A stretch of DNA of 64,000 nt from an uncultured bacterium (GCA_966243015.1 CBIMES010000002.1:48518-112517), one strand, 5' to 3'. Positions 739 to 60,221 are shown, numbered from the stretch's first letter. Numbers and translations are program-made. The notes: generated from the sequence alone by a model not told the origin.

Positions 739-1542
739 CTATCGATACGGAGCGCCGAAAATCATGGGGTTAAAGAGTTGGCCTGTGTACATGTATGTGC
801 CAGATCCCCCAAGACGGAACGATCCCATATTATACGACTTCAACGTCTTTGTGTATGTCGCCGAACCGACCTCCTTGCCGTCGAGATACAACGAGAAGCG
901 CTTGGCCGAGTCATTAACCGACATGGCGGCATGATGCCACTTGCCATCATTCACGTTGACGCCGCTATTGATTGAGATAGACGTGTTGTCAGTGAACCAA
1001 ATGGCACCCGTGAAAACTCCAGAATCCTTGGTCATATAAAGCCCCGAGTGATATCCAGGCCTCAGAATCATATAACCGTCGTACGTCGAACCAGGCAGGC
1101 CAGTCGCCTTGAACCACGTTGCCATAGTGTAACCATCACCAGGATCAGTAATCTGGGCCGCTCCGGGACTCGATGTGACGGGCATATCGACATAACCCGA
1201 CGTTCCGTTAAAAACGAGAGAGTACCCACTGCCCGTAGGAGTATTGCCCACCGCCGACCACGTAGCGCCAGAGGCGATGTTTCCCGTCAAACCGTTTCCC
1301 GATGCGTCAGCGATTGTTGATCCGGCCCCTTCGCTCAAACGCCAGAAACCGCCTGCGCTTGCGCCAACAGCGCGATACAGGGAGCCCTCAAACTGTGTTC
1401 CAGCTGCGATGCGTGCCTTCTCACGAGCAGCGTTAAGACTTGCGAGGACAACGCCTGAAAGCAAAGAGATGATCGAGATGACAACCAAGAGCTCAATGAG
1501 GGTGAATGCGCGGGAAAACTTTAGAAGCGACATTGTCTTCAC
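739..1542 (-). CDS. Type IV pilin-like (prepilin N-terminal) protein fused to a LamG/concanavalin-A-like domain
   Basis: N-terminus KFSRAFTLIELLVVISIISLL is a class III (prepilin) signal with cleavage/methylation motif. The C-terminal half contains a GKWHHAAMSV...LYLDGKEVG LamG-like signature. Confidence 0.75.
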   Translation of the reverse strand: MKTMSLLKFSRAFTLIELLVVISIISLLSGVVLASLNAAREKARIAAGTQFEGSLYRAVGASAGGFWRLSEGAGSTIADASGNGLTGNIASGATWSAVGNTPTGSGYSLVFNGTSGYVDMPVTSSPGAAQITDPGDGYTMATWFKATGLPGSTYDGYMILRPGYHSGLYMTKDSGVFTGAIWFTDNTSISINSGVNVNDGKWHHAAMSVNDSAKRFSLYLDGKEVGSATYTKTLKSYNMGSFRLGGSGTYMYTGQLFNPMIFGAPYR

Positions 1543-5824: not shown

Positions 5825-6220
5825 GGGGATGACGGGCTTCGACACACGATTCCCTTCCCTCTGCGCGCGATAGAGCTTGAGTACCTCTGCAAACTGCTCA
5901 AACCATCAAATGCAAAATCTTCCGTTTCGCCGTATTTCGCGGCACGAGATTTCTCATTCGCTTACGCAATAGCCTAAGCGACATCGTCCTTCTGCGCGTC
6001 CGGCGCGGGAGACCGCGGTGTTATATACCCGGACTAGCTAACTCCCAGTTCCAGGGCGTCTAGCGAGACTCGCCGAAAGGCGGGATGGAAATCGGACGAG
6101 GCGCGTTTTGTCTCTTTTACAGCGCCCCGCCCTAAAGCCCTTACGGGCGAAAACTGACTACATCGCGTAGAACCATTGGGAAAGATCATGTGCACGCGCG
6201 TTCAACTCGCGCCATCTCCA
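5825..6220 (+). ncRNA. ssrA: tmRNA (ssrA), one-piece
   Basis: The 5' end GGGGATGACGGGCTTCGACA matches the tmRNA 5' consensus (GGGG.UG...GG.UUCGAC). The 3' end GCGCG-TTCAACT-CGCGC-CATCTCC-A forms a T-arm and a 7-bp acceptor stem with the 5' end, including the G3:U70 pair needed for alanylation. In-frame tag candidate ...(A)ARDFSFAYAIA-TAA at 5939-5977. Adjacent to smpB. Confidence 0.7.
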
Positions 6221-6226
6221 CAACAA

Positions 6227-6260
6227 GCAAAAGACTGCCCCTTCGGCAGTCTTTTGCTTT
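6227..6260. terminator. Bidirectional rho-independent terminator between ssrA (+) and the DUF3761 gene (-)
   Basis: 13-bp stem gcaaaagactgcc / ggcagtcttttgc, loop ccttc, with T-runs on both strands. Confidence 0.7.
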
Positions 6261-6262
6261 GT

Positions 6263-6646
6263 CTAAAGCCACTCAGCGACACCACCGTGATGAGAGCACG
6301 TGCCGCGACGATTCTGGCTAAAGCTAAACGTACCGTCCTTACATTTTGCGGTTGCGCCCGAAGGCACCGAATTATCCGCCGAATAAGCTGGAGAATGAAC
6401 CCTTTGCCCATCCACATTGGTGTAATAGTTATTATTCGACAACGCGCCGCCACTAACTTCTGACGGTTGGTCCCCAGGAGAAACGATACGCGGTGTAGCG
6501 GCAGATTCTACAGCATATATCGGAACAGCACTATTCTGAACAGGCGAAGGCTGAGAAGGAGCAGAACCATCAAACGTAGTGGTAAGCACAATTAAGATGC
6601 CCAGAAGCCAATACCTTTTCTTCGCGAACCAAGGTTTCGTGTTCAT
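6263..6646 (-). CDS. DUF3761-family small secreted protein
   Basis: N-terminal TM/signal segment. The C-terminal CKDGTFSFSQNRRGTCSHHGGV matches the DUF3761 signature. Confidence 0.7.
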   Translation of the reverse strand: MNTKPWFAKKRYWLLGILIVLTTTFDGSAPSQPSPVQNSAVPIYAVESAATPRIVSPGDQPSEVSGGALSNNNYYTNVDGQRVHSPAYSADNSVPSGATAKCKDGTFSFSQNRRGTCSHHGGVAEWL

Positions 6647-6827
6647 GCTGTAATTATATGCTTGTGTGGTAAAGAATAATCAAAGAGATCACATTGACAC
6701 GACAATAAAGATACCGTACTCTTCAAAACCAGTCCGACATCCAGCAGCCAGTCGATATACCCAACCAGCCACGGAACCCGTTCCCCGCTGGAGGGGAATA
6801 CTGTTCTTTGGAAACTCACAGCATCAC

Positions 6828-7220
6828 ATGCGAAAACCCAGCACACCGCCACGAAACGTCCTCGTCTTGCGCAAAGGAGACAAGGGTGTCAAACCCCTCT
6901 GTAACGCCCTCCTCGTCGCCGGCCTCAGTCACGGCAAACACTTCTCGGCCAGCACGGACGAGAGCATCATCACCAACTGGGTCCACAACACCGGGAAGAG
7001 CCAACTCCTCATTATCGACCCCAGCGAGGACACGGAGCTCACGACCCTAATTGCCAAGCTGAAGAAAAAGAACGCCTTTCTTTCGGTGACCGTCATAGGC
7101 ATCCCCCGGAGCAGCAGTGCAGGCATTGACCGTTTCATCGACGTCGATGTGCGCGACGCGCAGTCGCTCAAGCCGATTGTCGAGCTCGTTCGCGAGTTTA
7201 ACGGGACGCCGAAGGTTTAG
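6828..7220 (+). CDS. Hypothetical protein (130 aa)
   Basis: Start placed at the internal ATG (MRKPSTPP...). The upstream part of the ORF-track ORF is low-complexity and lies in an AT-rich presumed promoter region. A terminator follows the gene. Confidence 0.45.
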   Translation: MRKPSTPPRNVLVLRKGDKGVKPLCNALLVAGLSHGKHFSASTDESIITNWVHNTGKSQLLIIDPSEDTELTTLIAKLKKKNAFLSVTVIGIPRSSSAGIDRFIDVDVRDAQSLKPIVELVREFNGTPKV

Positions 7221-7255
7221 CGGCCCTCACATGCCAACCAGAACACCGACACCTC

Positions 7256-7283
7256 AAGCCCCGCAGTGATGCGGGGCTTTTTA
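7256..7283. terminator. Bidirectional terminator hairpin (aagccccgca-gtga-tgcggggctt followed by a T-tract)
   Basis: 10-bp perfect stem followed by ttttatt, located between convergent genes. Confidence 0.7.
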
Positions 7284-7571
7284 TTATTTATGTGCCTCTA
7301 GCTTGTCCTCGTCCTTCGCAGCCTTCTTCTCCCCTCCCCACTGCCACCTCGGCGTCTCTCCCTTTATATATGAGAGTGTAACCAAGGCCACGGACAGCAC
7401 CGCGAGCATGATGCCAAGCCTAAGCGTCTGACCTTCCCAGAGAAACGCGCCAACGAGTACCAGCGCAAGATACACGGCAATGACCGTCCACCCCTGCCAC
7501 CCCGCCGGATACCAGCCCCAGCCGTATCGCTTCCTCCTAAACCACAGCTTATTTTCAGTTTGAGTATTCAT
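7284..7571 (-). CDS. Small membrane protein (95 aa, Trp-rich, 2 TM)
   Basis: Intact ORF with two hydrophobic helices. No assignable family. Confidence 0.5.
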   Translation of the reverse strand: MNTQTENKLWFRRKRYGWGWYPAGWQGWTVIAVYLALVLVGAFLWEGQTLRLGIMLAVLSVALVTLSYIKGETPRWQWGGEKKAAKDEDKLEAHK

Positions 7572-7577
7572 ATTATG

Positions 7578-7738
7578 TAGGCACTATGTCTTTTCAGCAT
7601 ACCATGTGAATAACACACCCTCTGAAAAGACCTTGCGCAGGCCGACGGGCCGAGCAGAGCAAAAGCCCACCAGGGCTTTATGCGTGTCTTGGCAGAGGGT
7701 GTGTTATTCACATGGTACCTTGCATCACATAGTACCTA
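7578..7738 (+). repeat. Structured inverted-repeat element, copy 1 (perfect 22-bp stem 7603-7624 / 7693-7714 around a conserved ~56-nt core at 7631-7686)
   Basis: Outer arms taggcactatgt / acatagtaccta, then catgtgaataacacaccctctg / cagagggtgtgttattcacatg. The core is ~90% identical to the reverse complement of 27682-27738. Confidence 0.7.
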
Positions 7739-7739
7739 A

Positions 7740-8174
7740 ATGTATACTACGCTCATGAACACCCAGGAAAAATTCACGTATCTGTTTTCTCGCTTCGCGC
7801 TCTGTATCGTCTACGTATGGTTCGGCGCCCTCAAGCTCATCAACGCGAGCCCGGCGAACCCGCTCGTCGACGCCCTTCTCCAGAAGACCCTCCCCTTCCT
7901 CAGCTTCGGGGAGTTCATCGTCATCCTCGGCGTCTTCGAAATCCTCATCGGCGTGCTCTTTGTCATTCCCCGCATGGAACGATTCGCCCTGGTCCTGCTC
8001 GTGCCGCATATGATCACGACCGTCGCGCCGCTCTTCCTCCTCGCGCCAATGACCTGGACCGGCTTCCTCTCCCCTACCCTCGAGGGACAGTACATCATCA
8101 AGAACATCCTTATCGTCGCCCTCGCCGTCGACATCTTCATAGAGAACAAGAAAGTCCGCGCGCTCCGCGCCTAA
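7740..8174 (+). CDS. DoxX-like small integral membrane protein
   Basis: 144 aa with four predicted TM helices, an architecture consistent with the DoxX/DUF417 class. First gene of the PadR-PspC cluster. Confidence 0.5.
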   Translation: MYTTLMNTQEKFTYLFSRFALCIVYVWFGALKLINASPANPLVDALLQKTLPFLSFGEFIVILGVFEILIGVLFVIPRMERFALVLLVPHMITTVAPLFLLAPMTWTGFLSPTLEGQYIIKNILIVALAVDIFIENKKVRALRA

Positions 8175-16070: not shown

Positions 16071-17441
16071 TCAGAGAAAATACTCGATGTCCCTCTCGGG
16101 AACCACGGCATTCGCACCGAGCTCGCTGCGAAGCCTCTGCGCGAGGAAAGCCGAGGACTTATTCTCCCCCATCGCCACGAACACCTTCCTGATCTTGGGA
16201 AGGGCGTGGCCTACGAAATCGACGAGATTATCAGAGTCCTTGTGAGACGAGTAACCACTGATTTTCTCGATGCGGGCGCGAACGCGCACCTTTGCGCCGT
16301 CGATTGTGACGCTGGGGCGCTTATCCTCAATCTGTCTTCCAATAGAACCGGCAACCTGATATCCCACGAGAAGGATTGTCGATTTCGGGTCATCGAGGAA
16401 CGAAGTCTCGGGATGAAGTACCCTGCCGCCGACCGACATGCCCGAACCGGCGATAATAATCTTTGGCCCCTTCATGCGATCAATCGTCTGAGACTCCTGA
16501 TGGTCCCGCACGATTCTGAGTCCAGGAAAATTGAAGATGTCGTCCCCTGCCCTGATAACGCCCTGAGTCTTATCGTTGAACTCCTCGATATGGGCGCGAT
16601 ACACGTCAGTGACCTTGATGGCGAGCGGCGAGTCAAGGAACACCGGCACACGCGGCAGGACGTTCGACTCAATGAGATTGTTGATTTCGTAGAGAATAAT
16701 CTGAGTTCTCTCGATGGAAAAGGCCGGAATCACCACCGTGCCGCCCTTCTGAAGGGTCTCGAGGACGATCGACTTGAGGCGAGCGCTGCGCACATCCTTC
16801 GGCTCGTGGTTCCTGTCGCCATAGACACTCTCCATGACCATGTAATCGGCGTCCGTCACGAACTCCGTGTCACGGAGGAGCGGCGTCGGCGAGTTCCCAA
16901 GGTCGCCCGTAAAGGCAATTTTTGTCTTCTTATCCCCCTCCCCGAGGGTTACCTCGATGATGGCTGAGCCGAGAATGTGCCCCGCGTCCTTCCAGTACAG
17001 AGACACCTCTGGGGCGAGCTGGAACGTCTCGTGATACTCAATCGTCTTCCAGAGCGAGAGGGCGCGCGCAACATCCTCCTTCTCGTACATAGGATCAAGA
17101 CCAGACTGACGAGCCTCGCGGGCAATAAGGGCCTGGGCGTCCTCAAGCATGAGGGCAGCGAGCTCCTTGGTCTCGACGGTCGAGTAGATGACGCCCGCAA
17201 AGCCAGCGCGGACGAGCTTGGGTATGCGGCCAATGTGATCCATGTGCGCATGGGTCACGAGCAGGTAATCAATCTTCGCCGGATCATAGGCAAACTCGGC
17301 ACGATTCTCCTCCATGGCGTAACGAGAGCCCTGAATAAGGCCGCAGTCCACGAGAATCAAGAGTTTCGGGGTCTTGAGCAGGAAGTTGGCGCCCGTGGCG
17401 TTACCCACCCCACTACAACATGTCAGGCTATAGTTACTCAT
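16071..17441 (-). CDS. MBL-fold metallo-hydrolase, beta-CASP RNA-metabolising family (RNase J / CPSF-like)
   Basis: HAHMDHIG (HxHxDH) motif, beta-CASP region, and a C-terminal RMMBL-like segment. Confidence 0.75.
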   Translation of the reverse strand: MSNYSLTCCSGVGNATGANFLLKTPKLLILVDCGLIQGSRYAMEENRAEFAYDPAKIDYLLVTHAHMDHIGRIPKLVRAGFAGVIYSTVETKELAALMLEDAQALIAREARQSGLDPMYEKEDVARALSLWKTIEYHETFQLAPEVSLYWKDAGHILGSAIIEVTLGEGDKKTKIAFTGDLGNSPTPLLRDTEFVTDADYMVMESVYGDRNHEPKDVRSARLKSIVLETLQKGGTVVIPAFSIERTQIILYEINNLIESNVLPRVPVFLDSPLAIKVTDVYRAHIEEFNDKTQGVIRAGDDIFNFPGLRIVRDHQESQTIDRMKGPKIIIAGSGMSVGGRVLHPETSFLDDPKSTILLVGYQVAGSIGRQIEDKRPSVTIDGAKVRVRARIEKISGYSSHKDSDNLVDFVGHALPKIRKVFVAMGENKSSAFLAQRLRSELGANAVVPERDIEYFL

Positions 17442-27500: not shown

Positions 27501-27654
27501 GTATAGACGATAAATTACAGCTCGGGCGTTTGGACTATAGTCGCTAACACGACTTATTAAATGAAAAAACTAGGCTTAAACCTAGATTCCTTTACTTAGT
27601 GTCCATTCCGAAGCTAGTAAGGGCTATCCTAGCAGAAAACAAAACTAAGTCAAT

Positions 27655-27764
27655 GGGCTCGCTCTCGCCTCCCCGGAAAAGCACGCATAAAGCCCTGCTG
27701 GGCTTTTGCTCTGCTCGGCCCGGTCGGCCTGCGCAAGGCTTTTCCGGATAGGGAGAGACGAGCC
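27655..27764 (-). repeat. Structured inverted-repeat element, copy 2 (core at 27682-27738 is the reverse complement of the copy-1 core)
   Basis: Imperfect outer stem ggctcgctctcgcctccccgg / ccggatagggagagacgagcc around a core roughly 90% identical to the reverse complement of 7631-7686. Lies 150 nt upstream of rpsS on the minus strand. Confidence 0.65.
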
Positions 27765-27818
27765 TGATGCTTGAAAAATAGCGCTTTGTGAGGTATTTTC
27801 AAGGAGCAATCGATCTTT

Positions 27819-28010
27819 ATGAGTCCATCGACCCTCGAACAGGAGCTTGCGGCCCTTGGCCCGAGACCCCTGACCCAATGGGAAGACAAAATCGTGTTAC
27901 CTGACGGATCAACCAGAACATGCATATGCCACATGATTAGCGGCGTCAAAGCCCTGGCACACTGGCATTTCGCCCGACAGGAGATCCTTCAAAGACACGG
28001 CCAAGCCTGA
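27819..28010 (+). CDS. Small hypothetical protein (63 aa, contains a CICH motif)
   Basis: AAGGAG Shine-Dalgarno 12 nt upstream of the ATG; a terminator follows. No homology is assignable. Confidence 0.4.
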   Translation: MSPSTLEQELAALGPRPLTQWEDKIVLPDGSTRTCICHMISGVKALAHWHFARQEILQRHGQA

Positions 28011-28018
28011 CCCTGGCA

Positions 28019-28042
28019 GCCGCCCCTCAAGGGCGGCTTTTC
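28019..28042 (+). terminator. Terminator hairpin gccgccc-ctcaa-gggcggc followed by ttttc
   Basis: 7-bp GC stem with a T-tract after the 27819..28010 ORF. Confidence 0.55.
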
Positions 28043-28054
28043 ATGCGCGGCCAA

Positions 28055-28080
28055 GAAAAAGCCCCGTTTCTGGGGCTTTG
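28055..28080 (-). terminator. Terminator hairpin (aaagcccc / ggggcttt) for the 28094..28618 gene
   Basis: The minus strand reads aaagccccagaaacggggcttttt. Confidence 0.6.
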
Positions 28081-28093
28081 ATGGCCAAAGGGC

Positions 28094-28618
28094 CTAATTA
28101 TTAAAGACAATCTCCTGTCGGAAGGACATCAGGGGCGCCAAAGCGATCTTGCCTGAAGGCAGAACGACCTCGATTCCCTCGGAGGGCATAATGAAAATGA
28201 ACCCTCCCCTTTCATTCGAGTCCCGGTCGGCATCCGCGAGCAGCGTGAGAATCACAGCCTCGTCTTTCGATATCGAGAGGCCAAGTTCCTTGAATACGAG
28301 GAAGCTGTCCCCGTCTTTCTCGACGATGCCGTCAGGGATTGAGATTCGGGCCAGAGCCTTGCCGTCCTTATCCGCCAAGGAAAACCTCGACATGTTCTTG
28401 AGAACCTCGGGCTTTTTGTCTAGCCGGAACATGATCGAACTTACCGTCACACCCGATTCGAACGCACGAAGCGACAGACAGAACACGGGATTGGACCTTG
28501 TCCCCACGGAAATGCTGGTCCTCGACAATTCACCCTTGCGAACGGACAGATGTTCTTCAGGAAGCGCGTAACAAAAGGCTCCGAAAAAGAGCCCGATAAG
28601 GCAGAGTAGTTGTTTCAT
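28094..28618 (-). CDS. Secreted hypothetical protein (174 aa) with weak similarity to the 33175..33813 lipoprotein
   Basis: Signal peptide MKQLLCLIGLFFGAFCYA. LRAFESGV...LADKDG...IPDG segments loosely align with LRAFHSVSLVDADG... of the 33175..33813 protein. Confidence 0.55.
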   Translation of the reverse strand: MKQLLCLIGLFFGAFCYALPEEHLSVRKGELSRTSISVGTRSNPVFCLSLRAFESGVTVSSIMFRLDKKPEVLKNMSRFSLADKDGKALARISIPDGIVEKDGDSFLVFKELGLSISKDEAVILTLLADADRDSNERGGFIFIMPSEGIEVVLPSGKIALAPLMSFRQEIVFNN

Positions 28619-28715
28619 GGTGAAAGAGCGGATGTTTGCATGGTTTATAACACAAAACCGTTGCTACGGCAATTTTAGTAGCGACGGTTCCTTTATTTTA
28701 AGGCGTTTAATTGTC

Positions 28716-29132
28716 CTACCCCCTCTTTCTCCTGTAGCTCGCCTTTGACTCGCGGGTGATAGCGAGAATCGAGATGACGGCAATATACGAGGCGCTTACC
28801 TCTGGCGGCATCTTGTATTCGATATCGGTGAGGGCCTGTGCCGTGATCATGCCCATAATGAGAACCGTCCAGAGGATCGCATAGAGCTCGCCCGGGTGAA
28901 AGCCCTCGTGAACCCTGTGCCATCGACGAAACTCCTTTTCGGCACTGTAAATCGCCAAAGAGGCGCAATAGATACCCGCGATTGTCAGGATTACGTGATT
29001 CTCGTCGAGAATGTTGTGATTGAGAAAATCATAGATAATTGCAGCAAAGAAAGCGACCGTCCAGAAGTTGACCAAACCGCGCCAGAAGCCGAACTTGCCG
29101 ACCCTTTCTGACAGATTGAGGATGAATGCCAT
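28716..29132 (-). CDS. Small integral membrane protein (138 aa, 4 TM)
   Basis: Four hydrophobic helices and a basic C-terminus; no family assigned. Confidence 0.5.
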   Translation of the reverse strand: MAFILNLSERVGKFGFWRGLVNFWTVAFFAAIIYDFLNHNILDENHVILTIAGIYCASLAIYSAEKEFRRWHRVHEGFHPGELYAILWTVLIMGMITAQALTDIEYKMPPEVSASYIAVISILAITRESKASYRRKRG

Positions 29133-29162
29133 GCCTTCATGATATCACGGGCAACGAAAAAC

Positions 29163-29190
29163 CCGCCTTTCGGCGGGTTTCTCTCTTGGT
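29163..29190 (-). terminator. Rho-independent terminator directly after rplB (aaacccgcc-gaaa-ggcgggttt followed by ttttcg on the minus strand)
   Basis: 9-bp GC stem with a T-run, sitting between rplB and the inserted genes. Confidence 0.65.
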
Positions 29191-29207
29191 TGAATGAGTC
29201 GAGAAGA

Positions 29208-39623: not shown

Positions 39624-40229
39624 CTATTTGTAGAGCTTGGCACACTGTCGACATGATCCTATCTCGCACGCAGCCCCGTCACCTGTTGTGTTGATAGGGT
39701 CAGCCCAGTAGAATTTACCCCAATAACCTCCCAGTACTGCGCACTGCGCGAACGTCGGTTGGCCTGCGGCTTCTTCAGGGATATATCCGATCTGGAAGCT
39801 GTCTGTGCCGTACGAACTCACATCAACCACGTTCCCATTCTTATCTGTGACGAGACCTGCGATGAGCGCCACGGGCGATGCGTAAATGTAAGCGTTTGCC
39901 TCGCGCGTAGGCACAGGATCAATTGGAACCTTAGCCATATAAGGCGCGAGCGCGGTGTTCAAAGCATCATTACCTTTGTGATTGACGGCACACGTCTGAC
40001 TCGACGTCATACCGAGACAGGCCCCTTTTGTAACAGGATACGATCCCCCATGATCCAAGGCATAGAGATAAAGGGCCTTCGATATCTGGTCCATATCGGC
40101 AACGCGTTTTGCGTTCCTCGCCTTAAGTCGCGCCGCGTTCAGGCTCGAGAGCACGACGCTCGACAGCAAAGCGATGATCGAAATGACAACAAGAAGTTCA
40201 ATGAGTGTGAAGCCCTCTCTGCGATTCAT
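39624..40229 (-). CDS. Type IV pilin-like (prepilin N-terminal methylation domain) protein
   Basis: Start placed at MNRREGFTLIELLVVISIIALLSSVVL. The upstream ATG lies inside the rpsG terminator hairpin. Cys-containing C-terminal domain. Confidence 0.7.
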   Translation of the reverse strand: MNRREGFTLIELLVVISIIALLSSVVLSSLNAARLKARNAKRVADMDQISKALYLYALDHGGSYPVTKGACLGMTSSQTCAVNHKGNDALNTALAPYMAKVPIDPVPTREANAYIYASPVALIAGLVTDKNGNVVDVSSYGTDSFQIGYIPEEAAGQPTFAQCAVLGGYWGKFYWADPINTTGDGAACEIGSCRQCAKLYK

Positions 40230-42386: not shown

Positions 42387-43182
42387 AAATCGCCTGAGCA
42401 TAGACACTCTCTATCTCAGCGGCGACAAGAGACTTGGCGAAAACGTAGACCGAATCGATGAGAAGGTTTCGCCCACACCCATTGGTACACGCGGCCAGGG
42501 CACCAAGCGTGGCGTTAAATGACGCGGGCACACCTGAGTTGGTTGAAGACAGGGTTGTGCCATCAAGCTTTCCGTCGACATACACCTTAAGAGTGGAGCC
42601 ATCATAGGTCCCCGCCAGGTGATACCAGCGTCCAGACTGTATTGCAGTAGAACCAGTCACCGACACTGCCGATCCATTCCAGATCCTAAAGGACGCCCTT
42701 CCCCCGCCAGTCACCTGGAGACTGTAGCCATTGTAGGCGCCGCAACAGTCTCGGTCGTTCGAGAAAATGTAGTTATATCCCGACGTCGTGTACTTGACCC
42801 AACCCATGACGGTAATGCTCCCGGCCATTGAGGAAAGAGAGACGTTCGACCCTGCGTTTACGTAAGGGGTGGTCCCAGACGAGGAGACGGAACAGCCCTT
42901 ACCAGTAGGCGTATCGGTCGAAAACGCCGCGCCGCCAGTCAAGGTGCCCGTATTGCCGTTGCCAGAGAGGTCGTTGGCGACAGTGCCGCTGCACTCGTCG
43001 AACTCCCATATACCCATAGCCTCGTCACCCGCGGCGTGATACACATTTGCGGCAAACTGCCGAGAGGCAGCAAGAGCGGCCTTCGATCGAGAAGCATTCA
43101 CGCTCGATATAACAACGCTCGAAAGAAGCGCGACAATGGCAATGACGACAAGAAGCTCGATGAGGGTGAATCCCCTTTTCAT
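42361..43182 (-). CDS. Type IV pilin-like protein fused to a LamG/concanavalin-A-like domain (second copy)
   Basis: Start placed at MKRGFTLIELLVVIAIVALLSSV. LamG-like region GRWYHLAGTYDGSTLKVYVDGKLDG. The ORF-track 73-aa N-terminal extension is rejected. Confidence 0.75.
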   Translation of the reverse strand: MKRGFTLIELLVVIAIVALLSSVVISSVNASRSKAALAASRQFAANVYHAAGDEAMGIWEFDECSGTVANDLSGNGNTGTLTGGAAFSTDTPTGKGCSVSSSGTTPYVNAGSNVSLSSMAGSITVMGWVKYTTSGYNYIFSNDRDCCGAYNGYSLQVTGGGRASFRIWNGSAVSVTGSTAIQSGRWYHLAGTYDGSTLKVYVDGKLDGTTLSSTNSGVPASFNATLGALAACTNGCGRNLLIDSVYVFAKSLVAAEIESVYAQAISTRPFATR

Positions 43183-50681: not shown

Positions 50682-51413
50682 CTAGGAGCAAGCGCAGTAG
50701 TCATTGCCCGATCCAGAGCACACAGACACGGCGGCGGGATTCGGGATGCAGCTGATGAAACCCGGCTCGACAAAACAAGGACCGCTCGGACCCGTAAACT
50801 TCCAAGGGCACACGCTTCCGTACATGCCGTTTCCTCCGCCGCACTCTGGCCTTCCGTACGTTGTGCAGAAACTAACCGTACCCATCGGATAGGAGAAATA
50901 GACAGCATTCGGATCAGTGTAAGGAGTTGAGGTGGTATATGAAGATATGCAGGTGGTATACGGCTGTTGAACAGGCATAATCGCACAGCTGTTCTTCGAG
51001 GCCTGGGCCTGACCCGTGACGAGAGAGGCTCCGAACGCGGACTGATCGGCGGACGAGTCGGCGTAGTACACGTAGGAATCATCCTTGCTGTCAGGGATAG
51101 CGGAGATGTATCCCCCGCTCACGAGCTCCTGCATGCTCGCATTGAAAGCCTGGGTACCCTCAAGTGCGATTGAGTCTCCCGTGCCACCCGCACAATAATT
51201 GCCGCCACAGTTGTAATTGCGTGGCACCTTTCCCGTGGCGCTCTTCTTGATACTGATCGCCGTCTCGACCTGGTGAACCTGTGACTTCTTGTTTGCGTCG
51301 CTGGCCTTGGCACGCGCCGAGGCGGTCGAGTACATGGTAACGCTCGAAACAAGGGACACGATCGATACTACGACCAAGAGCTCAATAAGAGTGAAGCCGC
51401 GCCTGAGAAACAT
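50682..51413 (-). CDS. Type IV pilin-like protein, Cys-rich C-terminal domain
   Basis: N-terminus MFLRRGFTLIELLVVVSIVSLVSSV, with many paired cysteines. Co-oriented with, and immediately downstream of, pgk. Confidence 0.7.
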   Translation of the reverse strand: MFLRRGFTLIELLVVVSIVSLVSSVTMYSTASARAKASDANKKSQVHQVETAISIKKSATGKVPRNYNCGGNYCAGGTGDSIALEGTQAFNASMQELVSGGYISAIPDSKDDSYVYYADSSADQSAFGASLVTGQAQASKNSCAIMPVQQPYTTCISSYTTSTPYTDPNAVYFSYPMGTVSFCTTYGRPECGGGNGMYGSVCPWKFTGPSGPCFVEPGFISCIPNPAAVSVCSGSGNDYCACS

Positions 51414-60126: not shown

Positions 60127-60221
60127 CGAGACGCGGAAGGCGCTCGCGGGGCATATGCCCCGCGAGCGCCTTTTTATGGACAAAAGATACCTTTGAGGCT
60201 AGACTGTCGACACACAAATAT

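Follow-up and report, generated by a model that had tools for sequence, protein, structure and literature searches.

Genomic context of the two copies

The window, i.e. the whole stretch of 64,000 nucleotides that was analysed, contains two copies of a 57-nt block in opposite orientations, at 7631-7686 on the plus strand (copy 1) and at 27682-27738 on the minus strand (copy 2), both detected by repeat search and pairwise alignment. Copy 1 is located between a divergent gene encoding 95 aa and ykgB, which is itself followed by the gene of a PadR regulator; copy 2 is located in the rplB-rpsS junction. Each block forms the core of a long hairpin, whose helices are called here P1 (the closing stem) to P4. 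The mapped features are listed below with the evidence for each.

7284-7571, minus strand: divergent 95-aa gene beside copy 1
7578-7738, plus strand: whole hairpin of copy 1, with outer stem, internal loop, long inner stem and core (RNA fold, inverted repeat)
7578-7589, plus strand: 5' strand of the outer stem of copy 1, pairing with 7727-7738 (fold)
7583-7610, minus strand: promoter-like TTCACA-16-CATAGT inside the 5' arm of copy 1, facing the divergent 95-aa gene (promoter scan)
7600-7630, plus strand: 5' arm of P1 of copy 1, putative inverted copy of the native ykgB promoter region (comparison with the relative L033)
7631-7686, plus strand: core of copy 1, three-way junction with P2, mini-P3 and P4 (alignment, fold, covariance model)
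7633-7636 / 7654-7657, plus strand: P2 of copy 1, UUGC/GCAG (fold)
7640-7651, plus strand: mini-P3 hairpin of copy 1, GGCC-GACG-GGCC (fold)
7659-7683, plus strand: P4 hairpin of copy 1, GCAAAAGCCC-ACCA-GGGCUUU-A-UGC, 10 bp with a bulged A (family comparison)
7687-7717, plus strand: 3' arm of P1 of copy 1, native ykgB upstream sequence from about 7703 onward (L033 alignment)
7720-7748, plus strand: promoter-like TTGCAT-17-TATACT for ykgB (seen by eye, below the scan threshold; region conserved in L033)
7727-7738, plus strand: 3' strand of the outer stem of copy 1, inside the ykgB promoter region (sequence, fold, L033 alignment)
27626-27653, minus strand: rpsS promoter TTGACT-16-(TG)TAGGAT, directly 3' of copy 2 (kept in relatives without the element)
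27648-27772, minus strand: whole hairpin of copy 2 (RNA fold; covariance model, 94 bits over 27666-27753)
27682-27738, minus strand: core of copy 2 with P2, mini-P3 and P4 (repeat search, alignment)
27685-27709, minus strand: P4 hairpin of copy 2 (sequence, fold)
27775-27802, minus strand: TTGAAA-16-TATTTT, candidate promoter for an RNA from copy 2, its end lying about 5 nt before the hairpin (promoter scan)

The placement of both copies upstream of genes in the same relative orientation agrees with the original prediction, made from the sequence alone. The gene following copy 1, described there as DoxX-like with a start at 7740, encodes a DUF417/YkgB-family membrane protein and starts at 7755 according to gene callers; it would be leaderless if the promoter-like site at 7720-7748 is used. 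The promoter scan also detected a mirror promoter-like site near copy 2, on the plus strand, facing a 63-aa ORF (27819-28010).

The resemblance between the copies is beyond chance. Two arm pairs linking them were found by repeat search in the window, 7646-7686 with 27682-27722 (41 nt, 98% complementary) and 7621-7649 with 27720-27748. A 29-position pattern with up to three mismatches matched only the two known sites, for an expectation of 0.00 in shuffles, and a filter-free covariance-model scan of the 64 kb retrieved only copy 1 (101 bits; 101.4 bits over 7616-7702) and copy 2, the next-best matches (23 bits or less) being plain terminator hairpins. The two inverted cores initially predicted are therefore real, but their identity, first put at about 90%, is about 96% by alignment, with one 1-nt indel and one substitution between the blocks.

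MFE folds of both copies produce the same three-way junction. Copy 1 is enclosed by arms at 7600-7631 and 7686-7717, which are 94% complementary over 32 nt with 25 bp in one perfect stretch, and by an outer stem of 11-12 bp, giving an RNA MFE of -90.3 kcal/mol (z = -10.3); the closing stem of copy 2 is about 25 bp long with two small interruptions (MFE -70.2 kcal/mol, z = -6.8). The arms of the two stems are unrelated in pairwise alignment. Arm complementarity, folds and alignment hence bear out the description of long enclosing stems that differ between copies. The AAAAG linker reported between stem and core is, by contrast, the innermost part of the stem itself, AAGAC/GUCUU in copy 1 and GGAAAAGC/GCUUUUCC in copy 2.

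A family of elements in Patescibacteria

We searched one genome per GTDB species for AGCAAAAGCCCNNNNGGGCTTTATG and found eight loci, all in MAGs of Patescibacteria; a metagenome scan for the core provided seven further contigs. A covariance model of the core (not of the full-length element) was used for the family search. It recovered all members and added three diverged ones, L012 74-258 (L012b), L007 2995-3184 (L007b) and L036 16592-16680. Additional copies thus exist, with about a dozen distinct core homologues in other Patescibacteria.

The common fold consists, in order, of P1, a joiner of 1-2 nt, P2 (3 bp, UGC/GCA), a 3 x 2 internal loop (RCA/GA), P3, a 2-nt joiner (KA), P4 (GCAAAAGCCC-ANCA-GGGCUUU-A-UGC), GU and the 3' strand of P1. 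The near-invariant parts of the core are the junction strands (UUGCRCAG ... CGAGCAKAG) and P4 with its bulged A. P4 is the most conserved module of the family, being invariant in 13 of the 16 distinct members. Only about 5-10 bp of P1 beside the core (GAAAAG(R)C / G(Y)CUUUUC) look element-borne. RNase Y is only about 70% identical between genomes sharing the core; a 35-nt block is almost invariant in these genomes and between paralogues.

Two classes can be distinguished. Class A, the mini form, has the full 57-nt core inside a locus-specific stem and includes the window copies, L001 (with another unrelated stem of about 27 bp), L009 (the orthologue of copy 2) and L036. Class B, the long form of 180-270 nt, comprises L002-L006, L008, L010 and L012-L015; the two ends of its core are retained (UUGCRCAG and CGAGCAKAGCAAAAGCCCANCAGGGCUUUAUGCGUG), and 90-175 nt, with a 17-bp helix carrying extra domains, stand in place of the 4-bp P3 hairpin.

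In the window, only a tmRNA and one tRNA passed the gathering thresholds of Rfam 15. Nothing relevant was retrieved at E <= 10 for copy 1, for the long form of L003 or for L007b, the loci yielding only tRNAs and tmRNA, so that the Rfam scan identified no known element. Nor did we find any description of the element in full-text literature on non-coding RNAs of Patescibacteria/CPR.

The element is non-coding, as originally proposed. Non-triplet indels (of 8 nt and others) separate the long forms, and the 1-nt indel between the window copies shifts the frame, so that no reading frame is conserved across copies or homologues; the small ORFs that can be read (60 aa in L003, 47-50 aa in the window) are ruled out by these frame-breaking indels. 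The element is neither a tRNA nor a tmRNA; the long forms contain a tag-like AACGACGAA stretch recalling tmRNA or two-piece tmRNA, and both ARAGORN and Rfam were negative. A domain of L004 and L007 (GUGAAAGGUGUAC...GUAAGGA) recalls the S-domain of RNase P; RNase P and SRP RNA were rejected for the wrong size and for lack of covariance-model support. A duplicated tmRNA 3' end, as in the att site of an island, was also rejected, the tmRNA located 1.4 kb upstream of copy 1 sharing nothing with the core. The neighbours of the copies, which are housekeeping genes or small hypothetical ones, do not suit a retron or another ncRNA associated with reverse transcriptase.

Covariation in the core helices

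In an alignment of 16 distinct members that was fitted to the model, which biases the pair counts toward the structure, 93.5% of the cells are paired versus 72% in shuffles, and pairing falls to 33-53% when the 3' partners are slid. Double changes affect 25 of the 33 pairs in this alignment, a number reached by none of 500 shuffles. P4 is 100% paired with double changes in 5 of its 10 pairs; they also occur in two of the three pairs of P2 and in all three pairs at the base of P3. P1 displays "covariation" in 14 of 16 pairs, which alone is not evidence for selection at the RNA level because arms may arise by duplication.

P4 is fully compensated in the three diverged members, its bulged A and helix lengths being kept. 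In L012b, a second paralogue situated 7.7 kb from the first L012 copy, GCAAAAGCCC/GGGCUUUAUGC is changed to GUAAAAUUGU/ACGAUUUAUAC (written out, GUAAAAUUGU-ACCA-ACGAUUU-A-UAC). L007b has GCAAAACUC/GAGUUUAUGC (written out, GCAAAACUC-AGCA-GAGUUU-A-UGC). L036, a class A member, combines CGC/GCG in P2 with GGAAAUUCGC/GCGAAUUAUCC in P4, the 3' side reading GCGAAUU-A-UCC.

RNAalifold applied to seven class B sequences predicted 58 pairs, and compensatory double changes are seen at 16 of these. The 17-bp P3 helix (GGAAAUUAGAAAACAAC/GAUUGUUUUCUUGAUUUCC) changes from GGA/UCC to GUC/GAC among members, and compensated inner helices were also obtained (GCCC/GGGC, GCAC/GUGC, GCCU/AGGC). Compensatory changes in P2, P3 and P4, together with the strand asymmetry described below, support the structural constraint of RNA type that had been suspected.

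Origin of the closing-stem arms

Two sites could be compared in filled and empty states. L033, which has neither the core nor the left arm of copy 1, carries upstream of ykgB the sequence GTTGTTCACATGGTACCTTGCATAACAAGGTACCATAATCTATACT, corresponding to the outer two-thirds of the right arm of copy 1; the alignment of the right arm to L033 begins at GTT(A/G)TTCACATGGTACC and continues as far as the start codon. The left arm of copy 1 corresponds to an inverted copy of this native right flank, and bears the promoter-like site directed toward the 95-aa gene. The YkgB protein of L033 is 83% identical to that of the window, and L033 comes from the same sample as L009. At the second site, L035, without the L036 element, keeps the outer 3' arm sequence (A/G)CCTTTTGCTTTT upstream of adk; the stretch (A)AACCTTTTGCTTTTAGTC found there is the outer 3' arm of L036, whose 5' arm is its complement.

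Judged from these two comparisons, the outer part of P1 is evidently made from the 3' flank. Since the 3' arm is native and the 5' arm an inverted copy at both sites, arm complementarity would be largely due to duplication, not to compensatory evolution. The stems do vary and stay complementary, but as an argument for a function at the RNA or DNA-structure level this is weaker than it first seems. The inverted duplication extends significantly beyond the paired stem in copy 1 only, where similarity beyond the inner stem was matched by 8 of 2000 shuffles, and not in copy 2, L001, L009 or L036.

Filled and empty sites

Nine contigs of the same species are identical across both elements (a tenth was not anchored). 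At the copy 2 site, five relatives with an S19 protein 88-96% identical keep the rpsS promoter and leader without the element. Among the relatives examined, only L009 carries the copy 2 element, and its upstream sequence is unrelated to that of the window. The copy 1 site upstream of ykgB is empty in L033, L034, L035 and L036. The class A copy of L036 is located between a small ORF and adk, a spacer that is empty in L035. The RNase Y-HU locus, on the other hand, is occupied in the diverged genomes L004, L005/L012 and L007, with compensated divergence. It therefore seems that some copies are stably inherited and that others come and go. In the window's own genome, the RNase Y-HU and cca loci (the class B sites of L012) lack the element and contain only ordinary terminators.

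The cores of copy 1 and copy 2 differ at two positions, and those of copy 2 and its orthologue L009 at about six. Copy 2 thus resembles copy 1 more than its own orthologue, and copy 1 is probably a recent derivative of copy 2, formed after the species split.

The genes beside the copies encode DUF3761, DUF417/YkgB, PadR, small hypothetical or housekeeping proteins, with no transposase, integrase or reverse transcriptase among them. In 9 of 15 tabulated instances, the 3' neighbour is the 3' end of a convergent gene, whose stop codon lies at -5 to +12 nt from the modelled 3' end of the element. An attenuator or upstream element, as first suggested, is consequently not the general case. A riboswitch or another cis-regulatory leader was rejected on the same ground, and also because the downstream neighbours are unrelated and because orthologous genes lack the element in relatives.

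Strand asymmetry and transcription signals

The sense strand of the element is the plus strand for copy 1 and the minus strand for copy 2. It has the lower MFE in 13 of 15 members, the difference being typically 4-17 kcal/mol; in the other two, the antisense strand folds better. The modelled helices contain 13 G.U versus 5 A.C pairs (p ~ 0.05), and U.G pairs are invariant in the class B P3 and in an inner helix. Taken together, pair counts and MFE asymmetry moderately favour a folded transcript of the sense strand.

Promoter-like sites in sense orientation are present just upstream of three members, copy 2, L008 (TTCAAA-17-GATAAT) and L015 (TTGGTA-16-GATAAT); the scan called none on the sense strand for copy 1. 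In L001, L009 and L012b, only about 20-25 nt separate the upstream terminator from P1, so several copies may be silent or transcribed by read-through only. Nor is there a terminator after the closing helix. The core does contain the conserved hairpin (P4) noted originally as terminator-like, but an intrinsic terminator scan called neither P4 nor P1 on either strand of both copies. P4 is followed by UUUAU on the sense strand and by UUUUGCU on the antisense strand.

A proposed small structured RNA and its rivals

These data are best interpreted as an uncatalogued family of structured RNA elements dispersed in genomes of Patescibacteria, with the two window copies as its minimal form (class A). 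The genomes of these bacteria are about 1 Mb in size with very little non-coding DNA, and to our knowledge almost nothing is known of their regulatory RNAs. With its covarying multi-helix structure, its near-invariant 35-nt block and no entry in Rfam, the element is a concrete candidate for a new class of functional RNA in this group. A family of structured intergenic repeats or small RNAs is a known kind of thing; the combination of a near-invariant asymmetric three-way junction, a swappable third arm and closing stems built at each locus is not.

We propose, with a probability of roughly 45%, that the element is a small stable RNA whose invariant junction and P4 would constitute a recognition module for a conserved partner. 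Its sense strand folds into the three-way junction, set on the long closing stem P1. Junction and P4 together would form the functional module and most likely bind a conserved cellular partner such as a protein, with P3 as a dispensable third arm, either a 4-bp hairpin (class A) or a 17-bp helix with domains of 90-175 nt (long forms). P1 could act as a stability or processing stem, because 25-32 bp of double-stranded RNA is an RNase III-type substrate. Its outer part, instead of being inherited with the core, would be made anew at every locus through a snap-back event in which the 3' flank is copied into the 5' flank, and new copies would occasionally arise at new intergenic sites. A sporadic presence among close relatives is, however, unusual for a housekeeping RNA.

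Paralogues that share a conserved module and differ elsewhere are known among sibling or protein-sequestering sRNAs (Qrr1-5, CsrB/C, 6S-1/6S-2), a likeness in logic only. Unlike in Qrr or CsrB/C, no seed-target complementarity or repeated protein-binding motif was found in the element; within the window, no complementarity of 12 nt or more exceeded chance, a single 13-nt match to an arm being at chance level.

The small-RNA reading has first to be weighed against a selfish, non-autonomous mobile element, whose folded core would be recognised by a trans-acting enzyme as RNA or as a single-stranded DNA hairpin, with insertion or replication producing an inverted target duplication and no cellular function. 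We consider this rather unlikely, although several data fit it: both window sites are empty in close relatives, as is the L036 site in L035, the arms derive from local sequence, and near-identical cores occur at unrelated loci with unrelated arms (2 of 57 positions between copies 1 and 2). The interiors of L003 and L006 are likewise nearly identical (three differences by eye) with different P1 arms and neighbours. The greater proximity of copy 1 to copy 2 than of copy 2 to L009 suggests a recent intragenomic copy, and the window, L012 and L007 each harbour more than one copy within 8-20 kb. Other data speak against it. Copies have no gene for transposition, integration or reverse transcription nearby and no shared termini. 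By reading the sequence, no direct target-site duplication was seen flanking either hairpin, the flank being duplicated in inverted form at copy 1 and L036, and we know of no bacterial element that makes inverted target duplications of 20-45 bp. Copy number is low in the source genome, with two copies in about 84 kb (the 64 kb window and a further 20 kb). Scans of viral collections covered 2.9 million contigs; two of the three found no family member, and the third, whose pattern was too loose, gave 120 matches at chance level. Lastly, the occupation of the RNase Y-HU locus across diverged genomes, with compensatory evolution, is as expected of a vertically inherited functional RNA, and the L012 paralogues are old and structurally compensated, not recent copies.

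Classical repeats offer a related comparison. ERIC/IRU, REP/BIME, pneumococcal BOX, Neisseria Correia elements and MITEs are likewise short, non-coding, intergenic and multi-copy, with long transcribed hairpins; their presence also differs between related strains, and internal insertions give rise to modular size variants. In these families, the whole unit is conserved, arms included, and copies usually number tens to hundreds. The Patescibacteria element differs in that only its asymmetric, covarying centre is conserved, with locus-specific arms and a low copy number. REP, BIME and ERIC were therefore rejected, the palindromic part being here the non-conserved one. MITEs or non-autonomous IS were rejected as well, and with them the initial MITE-like label: the arms of copy 1, copy 2, L001, L036 and L012b, i.e. 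the would-be terminal inverted repeats, are mutually unrelated, and only the centre aligns.

A more speculative idea, which we regard as unlikely, is that the element is either a novel type of bacterial genetic element, a protein-less RNA module spreading between genes and building its stem by inverted duplication of the flank, or the RNA subunit of an undescribed ribonucleoprotein of Patescibacteria. If the module does spread in this manner, stem building would sometimes provide the adjacent gene with a promoter in mirror image, copy 1 being an example.

The element could also act in cis as a boundary, a stable hairpin on either strand that would block read-through, protect 3' ends against exonucleases or serve as an RNase III site, with P4 as a bidirectional terminator-like hairpin. 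All copies are intergenic, the convergent stop codons mentioned above lie close to the 3' end, and at such sites antisense P4 reads AAAGCCC-NNNN-GGGCUUUUGCU, which is terminator-shaped. Copy 2 and L009 moreover have a gene or a terminator on their upstream side and the rpsS promoter on the other, and copy 1 lies exactly between two divergent promoters. A plain hairpin would suffice for this role, however, leaving unexplained the near-invariant asymmetric junction, the bulged A and loop and the 90-175 nt covarying domains. Besides the silence of the terminator scan on both strands of P4, ordinary terminators are already present just upstream of the element in L009, L001 and the window, relatives do without it at the same junctions, and the strand asymmetry of the long forms favours the strand antisense to the neighbouring genes. 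We consider a cis-acting boundary improbable.

Still more doubtful is a 6S-like RNA that would bind RNA polymerase as an open-promoter mimic, with P1 as closing stem, the junction as bubble and P3 as terminal stem. The long forms do look like rods of 180-270 nt, with a closing helix of 16-26 bp, a second helix of 17 bp and, between invariant G-C pairs, an asymmetric bubble whose 3' strand carries a hairpin; 6S RNA occurs as two paralogues per genome in Firmicutes. But no match to Rfam 6S (ssrS, RF00013) was obtained even at E = 10, and the window copies, with a P3 of 4 bp only, do not have the second duplex of 6S RNAs. 6S RNA is conserved in shape rather than in sequence, whereas the junction sequence of the element is almost invariant and its loci are not stable, an extreme invariance of the bubble and a sporadic distribution that are atypical of 6S.

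A DNA-level protein-binding site, recombination site or cruciform (attC-like, Xer-type or a duplicated PadR operator) is highly improbable. In its favour, the copies are inverted and 20 kb apart, the copy 1 arms carry promoter/operator sequence where L033 has the palindrome ATGGTACCTTG-CATAA-CAAGGTACCAT, with PadR after ykgB, and the rplB-rpsS junction with copy 2 bears different small genes in every relative examined. Against it, the element conserves an asymmetric centre instead of its ends, the opposite of integron attC, is present once per variable region, has no recombinase or integrase adjoining it (the sole Phage_integrase-family gene seen lies outside the window, about 18 kb past its end), shows multi-helix covariation, G.U pairs and strand asymmetry that point to a folded single strand, and in its long forms has no promoter or operator context.

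Possible snap-back growth of the palindromes

Quasipalindrome template switching does not define a family of elements; it is an established source of mutations, in which a snap-back event copies one hairpin arm onto the other and can thereby perfect or lengthen an inverted repeat (PMC7202029). Such a process would explain both the perfect 25-bp arms and a 5' arm made of inverted flank, and we infer from the filled and empty sites that it built the outer arms of P1. A stem assembled from neighbouring DNA would offer a clear case, in nature, of a palindrome growing by snap-back, and copy 1 would illustrate how a divergent promoter can arise in this way. Even if the family were only a low-copy selfish repeat, its copies would still mark hot spots of gene flux, such as the rplB-rpsS junction and the region downstream of tmRNA. 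In L035, an 18-bp inverted copy of the tmRNA 3' end is found beyond the terminator of that gene, which suggests that snap-back events are common in these genomes.

The rpsS leader and the rplB–rpsS junction

Copy 2 of the element lies upstream of rpsS, which has a promoter and leader of its own. The features of this region of the window are:

27501-27653, - strand: rpsS promoter (TTGACT-16-TGnTAGGAT) and leader
27570-27585, - strand: hairpin CTAGG-N-CCTAG followed by a run of 5–7 U, within the leader
27819-28010, + strand: 63-aa ORF, whose Shine-Dalgarno sequence (AAGGAG) is good

The leader, about 125 nt long, is strongly conserved across every relative examined (L026-L031), and a search of Rfam with it gave no match. 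It may act as a ribosomal-protein leader or attenuator.

The rplB and rpsS genes ordinarily adjoin in the S10 operon. Here they are separated by small hypothetical genes (27820-29200 in the window), and the set of these genes differs in each relative (L016-L032). The window carries genes of 138, 174 and 63 aa at this junction; relatives carry 213- and 140-aa genes, a 140-aa gene with a DUF805 gene, a 59-aa gene, or a 337-aa pilin-like gene. The junction is a gene-flux hot spot within a core operon. The 63-aa ORF, for which Pfam gave no match, is served by a promoter-like site at 27771-27799 that mirrors the site facing copy 2.

The ykgB promoter and the tmRNA–ykgB region

At the start region of ykgB (7740-7757), downstream of copy 1, the listed ORF has its first ATG at 7740, overlapped by a -10-like TATACT at 7743-7748. 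Gene callers place the start at the ATG at 7755, in which case the mRNA would be leaderless. In L033, a relative lacking the element at this position, a near-perfect 11-bp inverted repeat, ATGGTACCTTG-CATAA-CAAGGTACCAT, spans the ykgB promoter (~1628-1654) and is a likely operator of PadR, the regulator whose gene follows immediately downstream. A degenerate form of this repeat is kept in the window (7714-7738), where it now lies within the right arm of copy 1.

Three small genes, one DUF3761 and two hypothetical, separate tmRNA from ykgB in the window (5825-6223, 6224-7577), a set unlike that of the relative L035 (8552-9022). L035 carries, just past the tmRNA terminator, an inverted 18-bp copy of the 3′ end of tmRNA (GAGATGGCGCGAGTTGAA).

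Other candidate structured RNAs and repeats

Further features were noted outside the window and elsewhere within it:

L037 (same genome, ~7 kb past the window end) 16790-17170, - strand: gene-free stretch (~380 nt) in convergent orientation to the gene for the CCA-adding enzyme
L035 18694-18864 and L036 17100-17264 (two relatives): conserved nested hairpin immediately after secY
Window 1450-1512, 40155-40217, 43114-43176 and 51339-51401: four 63-nt direct repeats, 70–75% identical
Window 60137-60172, intergenic: perfect overlapping 23-nt palindrome, AAGGCGCTCGCGGGGCATATGCCCCGCGAGCGCCTT

The gene-free stretch has a promoter-like TTTACA-17-TACAAT and a strong terminator, gave no match in Rfam, and may be another unannotated RNA; the equivalent place in L012 is taken by the long form of the element. 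The post-secY hairpin (GAGCC...AAACCGUCAA...UUGACGGUUU...GGCUC) is not related to the element. The 63-nt repeats are probably coding, because, on the reverse strand, they resemble a prepilin-type protein's hydrophobic N-terminal segment. The palindrome, which looks like a bidirectional terminator, was the top match of the covariance model outside the element family.
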